Assembly (NCBI GenBank): GCA_016181175.1
Contig: JACOZV010000002.1
Coordinates: 64,115-128,114 of the forward strand
DNA length: 64,000 bases
From: Candidatus Yanofskybacteria bacterium
Lineage (GTDB): Bacteria > Patescibacteriota > Minisyncoccia > 2-02-FULL-40-12 > IGHO2-01-FULL-4-A
Reading direction: 5' to 3'
Shown here: piece by piece, positions 720 to 12,270 of the stretch
Position numbering within the stretch: the stretch's first letter is position 1
Layout: the number at the start of each line of letters is the position of its first letter
The notes under the pieces: generated by a model
Database searches by the model: none
What the model saw: the letters and a program-made list of their open reading frames with translations, nothing else
What the model was told of the DNA's origin: nothing
Translations under genes and position numbers: made by a program

Positions 720-832
720 CCCGTTAGAAGTCGCTGCTACGCAGCCTTACGCATAAGTTACAGCTGCACAATAAGACTTTTGATTATTTATTAGTTATGA
801 CTGCAAACCCGTTAGGGCGACTTCTAACGGGA
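720..832. mobile_element. CCCGTTAG miniature inverted-repeat element, copy 1
   Basis: Terminal IR CCCGTTAGAAGTCGC/GCGACTTCTAACGGG; flanked by TTCAT direct repeats (715-719, 833-837); abuts the rpmJ start codon. Confidence 0.8.
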
Positions 833-852
833 TTCATATTTGTGCTTATGGC

Positions 853-1062
853 TTACCTGCGGTAGATGATTCTTCCTTTTGTCCCATCGGGGCTTAGTTC
901 CAGTGTTACTTTATCGCCAATTATCACCTTTATATGGTTCATTCTCATTTTTCCCGCTAAATACGCCAAAACTTCTCTACCATCGTTGAGTTTGACCTTA
1001 AATTTTGTGTCGGGCAAGGCATCTATAACAATGCCTTCTTCTTTTAATTTTTGATCACTCAA
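853..1062 (-). CDS. infA: translation initiation factor IF-1
   Basis: EGIVIDALPDTKFKVKL...LAGKMRMNHIKV..GDKV...GRIIYR. Confidence 0.97.
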   Translation of the reverse strand: MSDQKLKEEGIVIDALPDTKFKVKLNDGREVLAYLAGKMRMNHIKVIIGDKVTLELSPDGTKGRIIYRR

Positions 1063-7593: not shown

Positions 7594-9309
7594 TTAACTA
7601 ATGTCTGCCCTTATCCGCCGAGTACCAGCGGAGATTGATTCTTCTTTTTTTATTTTAAATTTGCCGATTTCGCCGGTGTGAGCAACATGAGGCCCTCCGC
7701 AGAGTTCACGGCTGAATGGCTTATCATCGGAGCCAATTGTGTATACCTTCACAATCGGCGGATATTTGAGTTTGAAGAAAGCCAAAGCGCCTTTTTTGAG
7801 CGCTTCTTCGTATGGCATTTCCCGCGTAGTTACCGGGAGGTCTTGATCAATGGCTTTATTCACGATTTCTTCAACTTGTTTGATGTCTTCGCTAGTCATT
7901 TTGCGTGGGAATGTAAAGTCAAATCTTAAGCGTTCTGGGGTAATGTCAGACCCGGCTTGATGCACTTCTTCGCCCAGTACTTTGCGCAATGAAGCATGCA
8001 GAAGATGTGTTGCGGTATGCAGACGTGTAACCTTGGCCAATTCTTCCTCGCTGCCGGCTTTTAATTCCCCGGTGTCCAATATTAACCCATGTCCGCCAAA
8101 TTTTTTTTCTGCGCCGGCACGTGATTTGGCCTGGTGTTTTTTAAATTCCTCATCAAACGCTTCACGAGTTAGATTTTTGGCTTTTCCTGAATCTTTAATG
8201 CTTTCGTAAGGTAAACCGTAACTCTCATAAAGTTTAAAAGCGGCTAACAAATCAACAATTTCTAATTTATTTAATTCTGCCAAACCACGCGACATCGTTT
8301 TCCAAAATTTTTCGGCTTCTTCTTTGAATACCTCCCGTATTTTATTCTCGTCCAAATTGGCATAGAAATATTTATATTCGTGAATGACAGAGTTCAATAT
8401 CTCATAAAGATTGGCGGTATCATTTCTTTTTACTATGATTCGACGTATCAAACGTCTCAAAACATAGCCCTGATCTTTATTTGAAGGTAAAACTCCGTCA
8501 GAAATAAGAAAAACAACTGCCCTAGCGTGGTCAGCAATGATTCTCGGTAGCCCATTTCCAAAAGCAAAGAGGTCTGTTTCAAAAATATTTTTTTTGTTTT
8601 GGACTGCCATTGCCAGCCGCTCTAGCCCCATACCGGTATCCACGCCCCGCTTCTTTAGGGGTTCAAATTTAAAATCTTTTGTACAATTATATTCATTAAA
8701 AACAATATTCCAAATTTCAACACCTTTAACATATATTTCTGTTGTCGGTCCGCAGGGACCCTCGTCTCCGGTGGGACCCCAAAAATTATCACGCAATCCA
8801 TTTATTCCTTTTCTCGCCTCTATTTTTATGTTTGGGTCAATTTTCTTCCAAATTTGTTCCGAATCTTTATCTGTTGGCACGGGGTCGGCTTTAATTTTTT
8901 TTAATTCAAATATCTCATGCGTGTCTGCTCCGCCAAATACCGAGATATAATCAATCTCTAACCCCATTTCCTTGGTGATAAATTCATGGGCGTATTCAAT
9001 CGCTTCTTTTTTCCAGTAACCGCCGAAACTGAAATTCCCGAGCATTTCAAAGAAAGTAAGGTGCGATTCGTCCCCCACCTCGTCTATATCAGAGGTACGG
9101 ATGCATTTTTGGATGGATGCGGCGTTGAGAGAACCAAAATCTTTCATCGGATCGGCTTCGCCGGTATAGTATGGTTTGAACTGCTGCATGCCGGCGGTAG
9201 TAAAAAGCACCGATGGATCATTCGGCAAAAGCGAGCTTGATGGAACAATCTTGTGTCCCCTATCTTCAAAAAACTTTAGGAATTTTTTGCGTATCTCAAG
9301 GTGTGTCAC
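7594..9309 (-). CDS. alaS: alanine--tRNA ligase (short form without C-Ala domain)
   Basis: LFTTAGMQQFK, HLTFFEMLGNFS, DTGMGLER, editing motifs HTATHLL and ELCGGPH. Confidence 0.97.
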   Translation of the reverse strand: MTHLEIRKKFLKFFEDRGHKIVPSSSLLPNDPSVLFTTAGMQQFKPYYTGEADPMKDFGSLNAASIQKCIRTSDIDEVGDESHLTFFEMLGNFSFGGYWKKEAIEYAHEFITKEMGLEIDYISVFGGADTHEIFELKKIKADPVPTDKDSEQIWKKIDPNIKIEARKGINGLRDNFWGPTGDEGPCGPTTEIYVKGVEIWNIVFNEYNCTKDFKFEPLKKRGVDTGMGLERLAMAVQNKKNIFETDLFAFGNGLPRIIADHARAVVFLISDGVLPSNKDQGYVLRRLIRRIIVKRNDTANLYEILNSVIHEYKYFYANLDENKIREVFKEEAEKFWKTMSRGLAELNKLEIVDLLAAFKLYESYGLPYESIKDSGKAKNLTREAFDEEFKKHQAKSRAGAEKKFGGHGLILDTGELKAGSEEELAKVTRLHTATHLLHASLRKVLGEEVHQAGSDITPERLRFDFTFPRKMTSEDIKQVEEIVNKAIDQDLPVTTREMPYEEALKKGALAFFKLKYPPIVKVYTIGSDDKPFSRELCGGPHVAHTGEIGKFKIKKEESISAGTRRIRADIS

Positions 9310-9473
9310 TATTTGTAATTAAACTTTTTAATAAATCGGCGTACAGTTTTTACAACAAGCAAAATAATAGCCAAAATCAAAAACAGCCACATCAACCAAA
9401 TGGTCAAACTTAAAACCAGACCAATCAAAAATAAACCGATAAAAATTGTAATTAAAGTTTCTAAGATACCCAT
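9309..9473 (-). CDS. small membrane protein (54 aa)
   Basis: Manual translation MGILETLITIFIGLFLIGLVLSLTIWLMWLFLILAIILLVVKTVRRFIKKFNYK*; stop overlaps the alaS start. Confidence 0.55.
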   Translation of the reverse strand: MGILETLITIFIGLFLIGLVLSLTIWLMWLFLILAIILLVVKTVRRFIKKFNYK

Positions 9474-9477
9474 TTTT

Positions 9478-9552
9478 TGGGGGGATCTAGGGGATTCGAA
9501 CCCCTGACCCTTCTGCCACAGAGAAGTGTGTTGCCATTACACCAAGATCCCC
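9478..9552 (-). tRNA. tRNA-His(GTG)
   Basis: G-1, acceptor GGGATCT/AGATCCC, anticodon arm CTTCT-CTGTGGC-AGAAG, TTCGAAT loop, C73, encoded CCA. Confidence 0.92.
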
Positions 9553-10031
9553 ATGAATTTCTTATGTTCGACTTTGTCGTGGTGGATAAGATAGTGACAA
9601 TTATGGCAAAGCCAAACCAAGTTTTCTATTTTATTGTTCATCCTATTCTCGTCTAAATGATGCACTGCTAAAATTCTCTTATCTTTTAACTTACAAAATT
9701 TACACGCCTGCTTGGCATGACTTCTTAAGAGAATATGTCTGTATCTATGCAGGCCGCCTTTCCAAAATGGATGTTTTTCTCCAGAGAAAAAAACATTTCT
9801 CCATATAGTCTGACATCTCTTTGTACAGAAAAATTTACCACTTTTCGAATGCCTTAATTCTTTAGGCATTTTCCATGCTAATTTATTGCATGTGGAACAA
9901 TTTATAAATTTACCGCGACGTTGTCCTATCGTTTGGCATTTACGCGAACAGTATTTCCCGCCGCCAATTTTTAAGTGATATGGTTTGATATAGGATTTAT
10001 TCTTACAAATGTGGCATGTGATGGTGGGCAT
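9537..10031 (-). CDS. HNH endonuclease with N-terminal Zn-binding repeats; stop codon lies inside tRNA-His
   Basis: CxxC...YCSRKC and CxxC...FCTKRC, GEKHPFWKGG, HHLDENRMNNKIENLVWLCHNCH. Confidence 0.85.
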   Translation of the reverse strand: MPTITCHICKNKSYIKPYHLKIGGGKYCSRKCQTIGQRRGKFINCSTCNKLAWKMPKELRHSKSGKFFCTKRCQTIWRNVFFSGEKHPFWKGGLHRYRHILLRSHAKQACKFCKLKDKRILAVHHLDENRMNNKIENLVWLCHNCHYLIHHDKVEHKKFMGILV

Positions 10032-10038
10032 TAACTAA

Positions 10039-10067
10039 ATTATATCTGTTTCTGCCTATTGTTGCAA
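10039..10067 (-). promoter_or_regulatory. promoter of the HNH/tRNA-His unit (leaderless)
   Basis: TTGCAA-17 bp-TATAAT, 7 nt before the ATG. Confidence 0.65.
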
Positions 10068-10092
10068 GACTGCTCTGTGGATTAAATCCTCT

Positions 10093-10116
10093 CTCTACCA
10101 TTGAGCTACGGCCACC
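10093..10116 (-). pseudogene. tRNA 5'-half relic (His-like)
   Basis: GGTGGCCG TA GCTC AATGGTA GAG = G-1, acceptor 5' strand and D-arm, then the structure is lost; His identity is inferred from the typical GGTGGC start. Confidence 0.65.
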
Positions 10117-10126
10117 ATACGGCAAA

Positions 10127-10173
10127 ATTATAACAAGTTTTTAATTTACTTTCAAGCTGAAATGCGATATAAT
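10127..10173. promoter_or_regulatory. back-to-back tRNA promoters
   Basis: Minus strand TTGAAA-17-TATAAT (10155-10127); plus strand TTTACT-17-TATAAT (10145-10173). Confidence 0.65.
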
Positions 10174-10188
10174 TAGCACTAATAAACA

Positions 10189-10260
10189 CCGCCCGTAGTT
10201 CAACGGACAGAACGAGGGACTTCTAATCCCTAAATCGAGGTTCGATTCCTCGCGGGCGGA
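10189..10260 (+). tRNA. tRNA-Arg(TCT)
   Basis: Acceptor CCGCCCG/CGGGCGG; anticodon arm AGGGA-CTTCTAA-TCCCT; TTCGATT loop. Confidence 0.93.
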
Positions 10261-10263
10261 CAT

Positions 10264-10476
10264 ATGAAAATTTGGAAATGGCTTTTATATATTACTAATA
10301 ACGAGGAAAAATCACGGCACGAAGAGCTTTTTGATGTTGCCTTTTTTAGTCTCAATACCATTGCGGTTGTTTTTGGAATTGTTATGTTTATAATCCACAA
10401 CGAACCACAGTGGATACCGATTCTTGTTATTGAGTATACTTGGGCATTAGATAGTATGAGACACAATAGGCCATAA
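10264..10476 (+). CDS. small membrane protein
   Basis: 70 aa with hydrophobic core, between two tRNAs. Confidence 0.6.
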   Translation: MKIWKWLLYITNNEEKSRHEELFDVAFFSLNTIAVVFGIVMFIIHNEPQWIPILVIEYTWALDSMRHNRP

Positions 10477-10516
10477 ATATTTAGAAAAGGGTATTCTACA
10501 AATTTATAAATTTATA

Positions 10517-10587
10517 CGGGCCGTGGTGTAACGGTAGCACGAGACGTTTGGGACGTTTTAGCCCGAGTTCGAATCTCGGCGGCCCGA
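10517..10587 (+). tRNA. tRNA-Pro(TGG)
   Basis: Acceptor CGGGCCG/CGGCCCG; anticodon arm AGACG-TTTGGGA-CGTTT; TTCGAAT loop. Confidence 0.92.
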
Positions 10588-10598
10588 CAGTTAAAATC

Positions 10599-10634
10599 GC
10601 GGGTATCGTATAGTGGCAGTACGGCAGTTTTCCA
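10599..10634 (+). pseudogene. tRNA-Gly(TCC) 5'-half relic
   Basis: GCGGGTA TC GTAT AGTGGCA GTAC G GCAGT TT TCC A, then breaks off after position 37; no 3' half. Confidence 0.75.
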
Positions 10635-10657
10635 TATGTTTTGGTAATTAATTTGCT

Positions 10658-10704
10658 ATATAAAACAAAAGGCCTCCGGGGTATGGAGACCTTTTGTTTT
10701 ATAT
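10658..10704. terminator. bidirectional terminator between convergent tRNA units
   Basis: ATATAAAACAAAAGG.CTCC ... GGAG.CCTTTTGTTTTATAT. Confidence 0.7.
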
Positions 10705-10705
10705 G

Positions 10706-10776
10706 AGCGGGTAACGGGATTTGCACCCGTGTCTACTCCTTGGAAGGGAGTCATACTGCTGCTATACTATACCCGC
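10706..10776 (-). tRNA. tRNA-Gly(TCC), atypical D-loop
   Basis: Acceptor GCGGGTA/TACCCGC; anticodon arm ACTCC-CTTCCAA-GGAGT; T-arm ACGGG-TGCAAAT-CCCGT; U73; D-loop lacks GG. Confidence 0.8.
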
Positions 10777-10780
10777 AATT

Positions 10781-11452
10781 TTATTGCGATAACACACCAT
10801 ATATCCAACCCTTTATTCTCCTAAATAGTTTTACCCCAAAAGCAATATTTCCATTTGCCTTTATAGTAACATGAGCAGTACCAAAAGGCAGCTTTTTTCT
10901 TTTATAGATTTTTTTATTTTCTCTGCGATCTATTTGTACTTTTTGGAAGTTTTTATCAGACAAACCAGTTTCTTTTTTCCAGAATTTGATTGATTCATTA
11001 ATGTTGTTATCAGGGTATAAATGAAGTCTTATGGCAAAGTTATCATCTGGCAAGCCGATTATTTCTTTAAACCATCTTATGGAGAGCCTTATTACTGCTG
11101 GATCAGCATTGATTACTCGAATAATATCATTATTTTTAGTACCCTCTCCTATATAAATGCCAAGTCCTAAAAGCCACAAGTCTCGGTTGCTAAGTTTTCC
11201 GATTTCTTTAGCGCCAGCTTCAAGTAATTCCTTAGTTTCTTGTACTTTACGATTGTGGCTTTTTTCGGCTGATTTCATGGGCCCGCGGTATATTCTATCT
11301 AAAACTTCTATGTTAGGAGTAAACTTACGATCTCTAAACCAGTCACTTAGAGTACTTTTTGATATTCCTATACTTGCCGAGATCATGTTATAGGAGTATC
11401 CCCTATCTCTTAGTTTTGTTGCCTGATTTTTAAGTTTATTAATTCTGGTCAT
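10781..11452 (-). CDS. HTH plus LAGLIDADG-like putative homing endonuclease
   Basis: HTH LRDRGYSYNMIS..IGISKSTLSDW; helix LLGLGIYIGEG; ATG 11452 is 6 nt after TATAAT; ends 4 nt before tRNA-Gly. Confidence 0.6.
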   Translation of the reverse strand: MTRINKLKNQATKLRDRGYSYNMISASIGISKSTLSDWFRDRKFTPNIEVLDRIYRGPMKSAEKSHNRKVQETKELLEAGAKEIGKLSNRDLWLLGLGIYIGEGTKNNDIIRVINADPAVIRLSIRWFKEIIGLPDDNFAIRLHLYPDNNINESIKFWKKETGLSDKNFQKVQIDRRENKKIYKRKKLPFGTAHVTIKANGNIAFGVKLFRRIKGWIYGVLSQ

Positions 11453-11570
11453 AGCCTCATTATACCAGACTATAGTCACGGGTTCAATAAAATCGGAATT
11501 AAAAAGTGTGGCAGTTGTAGAATTTATCTGCATCTAATTTTCCCTTCAATCAAGCAGTTTATTCTCATTG

Positions 11571-11651
11571 CCCCCTACCCGCTCCCCCAGTCCAACTGGG
11601 ACCCCCTCACCCACAGTTGGAATGGGGAGTCGAGTTTGACTCGCCTCCCCA
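11571..11651. other. GC-rich double-hairpin element with strong G/C strand skew
   Basis: TCCAACTG/CAGTTGGA and TGGGGAG..CGAGT/ACTCG..CTCCCCA stems in an AT-rich spacer. Confidence 0.5.
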
Positions 11652-11696
11652 ACTATATAATTATATTAAGAATAAAAAGTCTGACTTTTTATTCTT

Positions 11697-11885
11697 ATGA
11701 ATAAGTATTACGTATACACATTGCTCTCACTTAAAGATAGGCGATTTTATGTTGGTTTCACCGCCAACCTAAAAAACCGTCTTCAGCAACACGCTCACCA
11801 AGATGCCAAAGCCAGAGAAGTGTTTCTCAAAAGTGGTTTTGGCAGAAACCAAATGAAGCAGGCATTAAAACAAACACTTTTGTAG
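11697..11885 (+). pseudogene. small GIY-YIG nuclease with probable internal deletion
   Basis: YYVYTL..FYVGFTANLKNRLQQH joined directly to DAKAREVFLKSGFGR; the usual central segment appears missing. Confidence 0.65.
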
Positions 11886-11943
11886 CCTATTTCCTATACT
11901 CGCTCCACAATAAAAAAAAGCTGATTTTTATTAATCAGCCTAT

Positions 11944-12270
11944 CTACTGCTTTGAGTTTTTACGACTCTTCGTCATCTGAAGTAATAACTTTAAATCACT
12001 AGTCGGCTCTTTTTTATACATTGAAAGCAACTCATTTCTTGTAATAATTTCTGCTTTATCACGAATAAGGTCATTGATGTGTCGACGAGTATACCAATCA
12101 ACGCCGTTTTCTCTTATGAACTTTTTGTCACCTGGACAACTATTGAGTGCATAAAAACCTGGCTTTTCGAGAAAACTCTCGTGCCTAACTACAATACCGA
12201 GCACTCTTCCGAAAACACAAACAATATCCCCACGCTTTAGTTTTGTTTGTGAAGTAATCAGTGTTGCCAC
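11944..12270 (-). CDS. hypothetical protein
   Basis: 108 aa; SD GAGGGAG; followed by a hairpin and T-tract. Confidence 0.6.
   Translation of the reverse strand: MATLITSQTKLKRGDIVCVFGRVLGIVVRHESFLEKPGFYALNSCPGDKKFIRENGVDWYTRRHINDLIRDKAEIITRNELLSMYKKEPTSDLKLLLQMTKSRKNSKQ

Follow-up and report, generated by a model that had tools for sequence, protein, structure and literature searches.

A cassette of about 0.6 kb stands where congeners have their native tRNA-His gene in the chromosome of a tiny groundwater bacterium, Candidatus Yanofskybacteria (assembly GCA_016181175.1, contig JACOZV010000002.1), of which we analyzed a stretch of 64,000 nucleotides, hereafter the window. The cassette carries its own promoter, a gene for an HNH endonuclease and a complete tRNA-His that we call the substitute, and upstream of it stands the 5' part of a broken tRNA gene (the relic). 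We consider it probable, at about three chances in four, that this is a homing element of the free-standing type: tRNA-His genes lacking the HNH gene would be cut by its nuclease in the anticodon-loop region, the repair of the break then copying the cassette. The evidence for this reading, legible in the sequences themselves, is the anatomy of the cassette, the occurrence of empty, filled and decayed alleles, the linkage of the nuclease family to tRNA-His, the split resident gene seen in several loci, the intact catalytic residues and the purifying selection acting on the nuclease. A first-pass annotation of the window, made from its letters alone, had proposed a selfish unit that cuts the resident tRNA gene and supplies a replacement, and this proposal was supported overall by the comparisons reported here.

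Anatomy of the cassette

The elements of the locus are listed from upstream to downstream.

10127..10155, minus strand: P1, promoter of the resident tRNA-His, kept upstream of the relic; TTGAAA, 17 bases, TATAAT with a TG extension (11 of 12 consensus matches)
10093..10116, minus strand: 5' relic GGTGGCCGTAGCTCAATGGTAGAG, 24 bases with G-1, the acceptor 5' strand GTGGCCG and the D-arm to about position 23
10081..10092, minus strand: degenerate stretch AGAGGATTTAAT, 12 bases; better-preserved family members have relic positions 26-37 and a short spacer here (20 relic-bearing loci compared)
10069..10080, minus strand: CCACAGAGCAGT, which holds the family-conserved CCACA(G); reverse-complementary at every base to the anticodon arm ACTGCTCTGTGG of the native tRNA-His in congeners
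10039..10067, minus strand: P2, the cassette's own promoter; TTGCAA, 17 bases, TATAAT (10 of 12 consensus matches), with the -10 box ending 7 bases before the ATG at 10031
9537..10031, minus strand: HNH endonuclease gene, 164 amino acids (aa), leaderless; its reading frame enters the tRNA for the final five codons and the stop codon
9478..9552, minus strand: substitute tRNA-His(GTG) with encoded G-1 (9552), C73 and CCA; acceptor GGGATCT/AGATCCC
9474..9477, minus strand: right junction, AAAA between the CCA of the tRNA and the ATG of a membrane open reading frame (ORF) of 54 aa, with the AlaRS gene beyond

The insert lies between a divergent tRNA-Arg gene on one side and the conserved 54-aa ORF and AlaRS genes on the other. 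ARAGORN places the tRNA-His at 9551-9478 (Rfam tRNA score 62.1 bits), and the overlap between the ORF and the tRNA amounts to 16 bases once the encoded G-1 at 9552 is counted. The assembly (G000; 776 kb in 7 contigs, with 44 tRNA genes found by ARAGORN) has a single tRNA-His, which is the copy of the window. Since the -10 box of P2 ends 7 bases before the ATG, the HNH mRNA would be leaderless; a P2-like layout recurs in relatives, with TTTACA or TTGACA followed by TAAAAT or TATAAT and then 6-8 bases to the ATG.

All six elements claimed in the first-pass annotation were found where it had placed them, among them P1, the relic, P2, the leaderless HNH gene and the tRNA-His that shares 16 nt with the ORF, and its statement that the acceptor and D-arm of the intact tRNA are unlike those of the relic was borne out, with agreement at only 5 of 24 positions. 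That the downstream copy arose by tandem duplication of a local tRNA-His was ruled out by these 5 of 24 shared 5' positions and by the finding of the nearest type in another family's cassette. The closest type to the substitute tRNA, starting with GGGGATTA, stands behind the HNH gene of genome G027, whose product is among the closest relatives of the window's HNH (59-60% identity).

The relic gave a local alignment score of 21.5 against 78 tRNA-His 5' halves, the maximum of 243 shuffled controls being 14.5. It begins with the same 7 bases, GGTGGCC, as the congeners' tRNA-His, and it is identical at 24 of 25 positions to the 5' end of the intact tRNA-His in locus L068. A chance origin of the relic was ruled out by the shuffle controls together with the empty allele of the congeners described below. 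We assign the relic to tRNA-His because it stands in the promoter context of the congeners' tRNA-His, shares the G-1+GTGGCC start with it, matches the tRNAs of L064 and L068, and is followed by the inverted anticodon-arm 12-mer at 10080-10069.

Empty, filled and decayed alleles in the genus

The loci of congeners were retrieved by a DNA search with window positions 9100-10800 and then read; the allele of each genome is given below.

G000 (window): P1 and divergent tRNA-Arg upstream; GGGGATCT-type tRNA-His with the 5' relic upstream of it; HNH intact
G002 and G005: same P1 and tRNA-Arg, with the tRNA directly after; intact G-1+GTGGCC-type tRNA-His; no HNH
G004: P1, then GGTGGTC at the contig end; tRNA-His partial; no HNH seen
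G001 and G003: other neighbours; GGTGGC-type tRNA-His; no HNH
G006: different upstream context; GGGGATCT-type tRNA-His identical to the window's at 74 of 74 positions; HNH remnant only

The HNH protein is sporadic in its distribution, having been found in none of the six congeners and, counting the window's genome, in 11 of 60 relatives. From the arrangement of their loci, G002 and G005 carry the empty allele, in which the same promoter directly precedes an intact G-1+GTGGCC tRNA-His in place of the HNH gene; an allele of this form had been predicted in the first-pass annotation. P1 is common to G002, G004 and G005 among the five congeners with a GGTGG-type tRNA-His (G004 being cut by the contig end). 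HNH-less congeners with the GGGGATCT-type tRNA, which would have argued against the proposal, were not encountered; the sole congener with this tRNA, G006, has a decayed HNH remnant in front of it, in keeping with the proposal.

The remnant in G006 has lost its 5' part, and an internal deletion of 49 bases removes the catalytic core, so that a decayed copy, as in a cycle of invasion and degeneration, precedes an identical substitute tRNA. The two stretches left of it, of 105 and 33 bases, agree with the window at 99% and 94% of positions, respectively, compared with about 80% for the adjacent AlaRS gene, and the similarity of G000 and G006 stops at AAAAATG directly after the tRNA. In G003, the ATG of the 54-aa ORF overlaps the CCA of the native tRNA. 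Contigs from runs X3 and X4 skip 49 bases (9572-9622) and 162 bases (9308-9471) of the window; since the joints match a G006-type locus, the carrier of the decayed allele co-occurs with the window's organism in X3 and X4, both of which also contain the window's allele.

An insert of another kind was seen in two of the congeners. In G001 (L114, ~748-895, reverse strand), about 150 bases lie behind the native tRNA-His, after which the 19 bases at the tRNA's end (GAATCCCTCTGGCCACCCA) are repeated; the start of an insert in G002 (L023, after 1725) resembles that of G001. Rfam gave no match for this insert in either genome; it looks like a different small element using the 3' end of the tRNA.

Linkage of the family to tRNA-His

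A survey of 185,579 species genomes yielded 179 relatives of the HNH protein, of which the best 80 (48-61% identical) were kept. Nearly all of these 80 are from Patescibacteria-type genomes, and together with the window they make up the 81 loci considered here. The position of the tRNA-His in the 80 relatives was as follows.

tRNA-His on the strand of the ORF and sharing 15 bases with its end, or 16 when G-1 is counted: 36 of 80 loci
tRNA-His overlapping the ORF end by 21-23 bases: 2 of 80
tRNA-His 2-26 bases after the ORF: 36 of 80
Adjacent tRNA-His that ARAGORN did not call, its T-loop being odd, and that was seen by eye: 2 of 80 (L075, L089)
tRNA after a second HNH copy: 1 of 80 (L076)
Locus ending at the ORF: 1 of 80 (L072)
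tRNA-His about 90 bases upstream of the HNH gene instead: 2 of 80 (L052, L100)

Hence, a same-strand tRNA-His called by ARAGORN lies at -23 to +26 bases from the end of the HNH gene in 74 of the 80 loci, an immediately adjacent downstream copy is present in 76 when the two seen by eye are added, and tRNA-His follows the HNH gene or HNH pair in 77. As had been expected for homologs, 38 of the 80 HNH genes end inside a tRNA-His, while 36 stop 2-26 bases before it and two more were joined to one by eye. ORFs that overlap the tRNA terminate at a TAA or TAG in its D-loop. The state of overlap versus gap changes 19 times on the HNH tree, which is poorly resolved.

Some loci deviate from the common arrangement. 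In L052 and L100, a short TGTGG...CCACA palindrome lies between the upstream tRNA-His and the HNH gene, and no tRNA follows the ORF. Tandem diverged HNH paralogues precede one tRNA-His in 18 of the 81 loci (L053, L057, L061, L065, L066, L068, L070, L071, L076, L077, L082, L088-L091, L095, L103 and L107), the weaker copy having 36-50% identity to the query, and the same is seen in G038 (L003/L012); such pairs might form a two-subunit arrangement. Many substitute tRNA-His genes have non-canonical T-loops, such as GGGGGCAGCACCC, GGAGCATAACC and GGTGCAAATCC (L075, L089, L113, L082, L061, L087 and others). Finally, distant HNH relatives are located directly upstream of tRNA-Ser(tga) in 2 loci or tRNA-Leu(taa) in 6 loci (L005, L013, L006-L011), with several of these ORFs extending 15-42 bases into the tRNA; by eye, without scoring, their upstream regions contain no convincing relic.

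Relics and the insertion point

The search for 5' relics was done with annotated tRNAs masked, by aligning the 160 bases upstream of the HNH gene or HNH pair to the 78 tRNA-His 5' halves at a threshold of 15. Under these conditions, 20 of the 81 loci scored at least 15, and 17 scored above 20 (maximum of 243 shuffles, 14.5). Every upstream relic detected is the 5' half of a tRNA-His and thus agrees in identity with the tRNA downstream, as had been anticipated; the sequences of relic and intact tRNA usually differ strongly. Fifteen of the 20 relics span G-1 through the anticodon (TGTG or TGTGG) and stop at the same position, G37, and all 20 end 44-61 bases before the ATG, most of them at 54-57. 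Applied to the sequence beyond the intact tRNA, the same approach revealed 3' relics in 5 of 75 loci, against a shuffle maximum of 14.5. Two of these loci, L060 and L093, have a 3' relic whose acceptor strand pairs with the 5' relic of the same locus, which indicates that the resident gene was split in the anticodon region by a promoter, an HNH gene and a whole substitute tRNA. As most relics reach the anticodon and some loci keep the 3' half, the insertion point appears to be the anticodon-loop region. Taken with the anatomy of the cassette, the alleles of the genus and the linkage to tRNA-His, the relics show that members of the family interrupt the resident tRNA-His gene and bring a complete substitute with them.

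The sister cassettes L071 and L091 are homologous from within a few bases of the relic end to the 3' end of the tRNA, whereas their relics and upstream flanks are unrelated, which points to a tRNA that travels with the nuclease and a relic that belongs to the host. When 12 relics were compared with their intact partners by position, differences were spread over all stems and no single candidate 'immunity' position emerged. In comparison with the longer relics of the family, that of the window would be a truncated, older version, and the degenerate stretch 10081..10092 may be its decayed remainder.

These positions bear on another explanation, which we regard as distinctly improbable, namely that the HNH gene nests as a passenger in the insertion-tolerant leaders of tRNA genes and does not target tRNA-His, the foreign tRNA having come by ordinary recombination and the relics being by-products of unrelated rearrangements. 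Such a passenger would accommodate the distant relatives just upstream of tRNA-Ser(tga) and tRNA-Leu(taa) with no convincing relic, the majority of loci without relics, and the location of tRNA-His upstream of the HNH gene in L052 and L100. However, it would not account for the common stop of 15 of the 20 relics at G37 and their narrow range of distances from the ATG, nor for L060 and L093, where the cassette is flanked by the 5' and 3' halves of one disrupted gene, nor for the specificity of the close family for a single tRNA identity (tRNA-His downstream in 77 of 80 loci).

Bacterial tRNA group I introns insert next to the anticodon, a position that the insertion described here recalls. Group I introns can harbour HNH ORFs (PDB 1U3E), and the HNH gene could then be the remnant of the ORF of a degenerate intron or, alternatively, of an integrase-type island using a tRNA attachment site. 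We find either origin hardly credible. With Rfam over 9000-12000, listing matches with E up to 10, only four tRNAs reach the gathering score and no intron or other RNA family appears, the relic being too short to be called; the element is therefore intron-free, as had been claimed, as far as the Rfam families go. In the same region neither a group I ribozyme core nor a contiguous 3' exon was found: what follows the ORF is a complete tRNA in place of a 3' exon, and a 3' half is absent from the window. With the tRNA stub on one side and the complete tRNA on the other, the HNH ORF forms a leaderless gene of its own, inside neither an intron nor an intein. As for an island, the HNH gene is the only sizeable ORF in the ~0.6-kb insert, so there is no integrase, and the repeated part is the 5' half of the tRNA and not the 3' end that integrases duplicate; neither a recombinase nor the corresponding 3' direct repeat was present in the insert.

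The CCACA(G) motif

A second conserved feature lies between the relic and the HNH gene. In 41 of the 81 loci, a CCACA terminates at a distance of 30-60 bases from the start codon, mostly at 44-46 (shuffle mean 1.25, maximum 4), and CCACAG occurs in the same range in 27. The palindrome TGTGG-N3-10-CCACA, formed by the relic anticodon and the motif, is found in 11 of the 81 loci (shuffle mean 0.01), with arms as long as 14 bases (L045) or about 9 (L044). The 12-mer CCACAGAGCAGT is in none of the 78 tRNA-His genes of the library and is present in G001, G002 and G005. It could be an inverted copy, retained bases of the 3' stem or a repair scar, three origins that the sequence does not separate because the anticodon stem is self-complementary.

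The fixed position of the motif just upstream of the -35 box suggests a candidate binding site, which is a conjecture on our part. The nuclease I-TevI represses its own expression through an operator that resembles its homing site, and the CCACA(G) and relic just upstream of the HNH -35 box may be analogous. In contrast to the I-TevI operator, the motif here reads as an inverted copy of the anticodon-loop sequence and the site is a putative one.

The nuclease and its selection

In Pfam, NCBIfam and PHROGs, the protein matches only HNH-type families, and no GIY-YIG domain was found there. PHROG 1271 'HNH endonuclease' matches residues 3-159 (E 2.2e-13), and the Pfam HNH_3 match, at 22.5 bits, is under the cut-off of 24.8. 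With a four-sequence profile, the core CxxC...HH...N...CxxCH...H aligns with the HNH regions of IscB and group II maturases; PDB 1U3E (HNH homing endonuclease; I-HmuI) is among the profile matches with marginal similarity (E 0.095). The N-terminal part has two four-cysteine modules (C6/C9/C28/C32 and C45/C48/C69/C73), whose eight cysteines are invariant in 73 aligned relatives. The C-terminal part is a zinc-type HNH core in which the catalytic motif (His-His...Asn...His) lies within two CxxC zinc pairs; C110, C113, H124, H125, C142, C145, H146 and H150 are invariant in the 73 sequences and N137 is nearly so. As the window's HNH retains every residue invariant across these sequences, the nuclease looks functional. 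The AlphaFold2 (AF2) model, confident at a predicted local distance difference test (pLDDT) of 92.7, has strands at 121-125 and 138-142 followed by a helix at 143-151. A Foldseek search against the PDB gave McrA, Gme HNH, Cap5 and IscB as the best domain matches, none at E 0.001, and no convincing structural relative for the N-terminal cysteine modules. The protein is thus predicted to consist of a zinc-finger DNA-binding part and an HNH nuclease.

In the clade L043/L046/L054/L059, the ratio of nonsynonymous to synonymous divergence (dN/dS) of the HNH gene is 0.07-0.11 at a dS of 0.75-1.3. The relics of these loci are 97-100% identical and the intact tRNAs likewise 97-100%, as compared to 63-79% for the spacer and 50-67% for the flanks. 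At this depth a neutral relic should have diverged, which suggests that the relics are either renewed from functional native alleles or have a function. We prefer renewal at each homing; alternatively, the relic itself could be functional, as a homology arm or an operator. Among eight locus pairs in which cassette and flank identity were compared, there was no excess of cassette identity and no sign of recent transfer.

It is here that the main rival explanation has to be weighed. The HNH gene, the conserved 5' half and the CCACA(G) could form a domesticated module, an immobile, vertically inherited unit that benefits the host in the expression or processing of tRNA-His. The arrangement is kept in 76 of the 80 relatives, the dN/dS is low at a near-saturated dS, the relic is conserved next to a diverging spacer, the CCACA holds its position in 41 of the 81 loci and, in one clade, the cassette is about as diverged as the upstream flank, all of which would be expected of such a module. 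On the other hand, all six congeners do without an intact HNH and a plain tRNA-His suffices for them; the copy in G006 has decayed; the 5' half appears dispensable, since it is truncated in the window and missing from 61 of 81 loci; and sister cassettes occur in unrelated flanks with different relics. Therefore, we judge domestication unlikely and retain the homing element as the preferred reading.

Neighbouring genes

A further pair of genes was observed next to the locus. An ORF of 250 aa (11533-10781, minus strand) ends 4 bases before a tRNA-Gly(tcc) (10776-10705); it has an HTH_3 match, and its LLGLGIYIGEG recalls, by eye, LAGLIDADG enzymes. The tRNA-Gly(tcc) of G005 has the acceptor stem of the window's and different D, anticodon and T arms, lies on the opposite strand relative to tRNA-His and is not adjoined by an ORF of the 250-aa type. 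This pair may be a second nuclease-plus-tRNA cassette; by eye, without scoring, there was no convincing relic upstream of the 250-aa ORF. In the 7 contigs of assembly G000, ARAGORN found no tRNA-Asn, and a tRNA-Ile with anticodon TAT is present.

Discussion

In the homing reading that we favour, the HNH nuclease would cut or nick HNH-less tRNA-His genes near the anticodon, and repair of the break would copy the cassette, with the two tRNA halves and the flanks serving as homology arms. The substitute tRNA would escape cutting as its stems differ from those of the target, and by being carried along it would render the destruction of a single-copy essential gene harmless in the absence of an intron. 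P1 and P2 would both transcribe through the HNH gene into the tRNA, whose trimming by RNase P would remove the stop codon of the ORF and may in this way limit nuclease levels. After fixation, first the relics and then the nuclease would decay, the window being mid-way and G006 further along. Where the substitute is the sole tRNA-His it could not be lost, whereas the nuclease could decay, as in G006.

Several observations weigh against this reading. That the nuclease cuts, where it would do so and that the substitute tRNA would be immune are deductions from sequence. The relic of the window stops at the D-arm, and no 3' relic was found in the window, where the downstream alignment scored 8.0 against a shuffle maximum of 14.5; in the family, no 5' relic could be detected at 61 of 81 loci, and a 3' relic is lacking at 70 of 75. 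The 24 bases of the relic are not specific for His by themselves, as the tRNA-Ile(tat) of the same genome matches 20 of the 24; hence, the His identity that the first-pass annotation had deduced stands on the context, the shared start, the L064/L068 match and the inverted 12-mer, and not on these bases alone. The D-arm of the relic differs at several positions from that of the congeners' native tRNA-His, with 18-19 of the 24 bases matching. No HNH-less allele of the window's own species appeared in contigs from X3-X6, in which uncovered parts are uninformative. The HNH tree, made by a quick method from 73 rows, has only 11 of 70 inner branches well supported and is unfit for a test of host incongruence or transfer. 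Lastly, in L043/L046/L054/L059 the cassette is about as diverged as the upstream flank, which speaks of long vertical persistence under strong purifying selection, as would also be expected of a domesticated gene.

The D-arm of the relic fits the L064/L068-type tRNA-His better than that of the congeners; thus, the relic may have been co-converted from a donor and not be the lineage's own resident gene. The indirect signs of co-conversion are this D-arm, unlike that of the congeners, along with the match of 24 of 25 positions to L068 and the identity of 94-99% between the G000 sequence and the G006 remnant beside an AlaRS of about 80%.

The closest known system is SegB, a free-standing homing endonuclease in the tRNA gene cluster of phage T4 (PMC2330249). 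SegB is a GIY-YIG enzyme whose recognition site includes a conserved motif of tRNA genes, the T-psi-C stem-loop, and it promotes the inheritance of itself and of neighbouring tRNA genes, with loss of the tRNA-region markers of the recipient (PMC2330249). A free-standing nuclease gene among tRNA genes is common to both; here, however, the enzyme is of the HNH type, the chromosome is cellular and Patescibacteria-type, and the proposed target is a single-copy tRNA-His, with the junction at the anticodon. A disrupted tRNA relic and an ORF fused to a substitute tRNA are features of the present cassette that do not figure in the available description of SegB. In layout, the closest analogue that the consulted sources offer is found in fungal mitochondria, where free-standing homing endonuclease genes are flanked by partial (C-terminal) duplicates of the invaded atp6 and cob (PMC6279837), so that an intron-less nuclease gene also lies beside a working copy and a leftover partial copy. 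As described there, those cases concern protein-coding genes with 3' partial duplicates, LAGLIDADG or GIY-YIG enzymes and organelles, whereas here a tRNA is split at the anticodon and a whole substitute gene is supplied. Intron-borne HNH enzymes of the I-HmuI type likewise use an HNH catalytic domain for mobility into a conserved gene; in their case a self-splicing intron keeps the host gene working, whereas no ribozyme is detectable here and a spare tRNA would have that role. In the available part of one paper on a candidate phyla radiation (CPR) genome, the mention of nucleases is limited to a 23S rRNA intron nuclease (PMC7143001). Our full-text literature searches, with subscription-only papers outside their coverage, found no description of a bacterial tRNA gene being split by an HNH cassette that supplies the substitute for it. 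Judging from the literature searched and from the sequences, the cassette would represent the biology of free-standing homing endonucleases in a form new for bacterial tRNA genes. To it the window contributes an empty allele with the same promoter, a decayed allele in a co-occurring congener, evidence of selection and the CCACA(G) motif.

Homing endonucleases in essential genes normally persist within self-splicing introns or inteins. Here, the same survival problem would be solved otherwise, by an element that destroys a gene and arrives with a spare copy of it. The introns of tRNA genes and the joints of split tRNAs are located near the anticodon. A broader proposal, which we put forward tentatively and rate below even odds, is that Patescibacteria hold widespread, still-active, intron-free homing elements that break single-copy essential tRNA genes beside the anticodon and carry a portable whole tRNA, the 5' half and CCACA(G) being homology arm and nuclease operator. 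Such elements might drive the replacement of tRNA-His, and by extension of other tRNAs, between lineages, and offer a route at the DNA level to split or permuted tRNA genes.

For annotation, a tRNA stub of this kind is not to be taken as a broken essential gene, and an HNH ORF that ends inside a tRNA is legitimate. If the native tRNA-His is indeed cut, this would explain the varied acceptor and D-arm sequences of tRNA-His among these genomes, and nucleases as compact as 164 aa would have long, predictable targets. Invasion, fixation and decay would then be readable within one genus, from the empty alleles of G001, G002, G003 and G005 through the filled allele of G000 to the decayed one of G006, and an essential single-copy tRNA would be replaceable horizontally.

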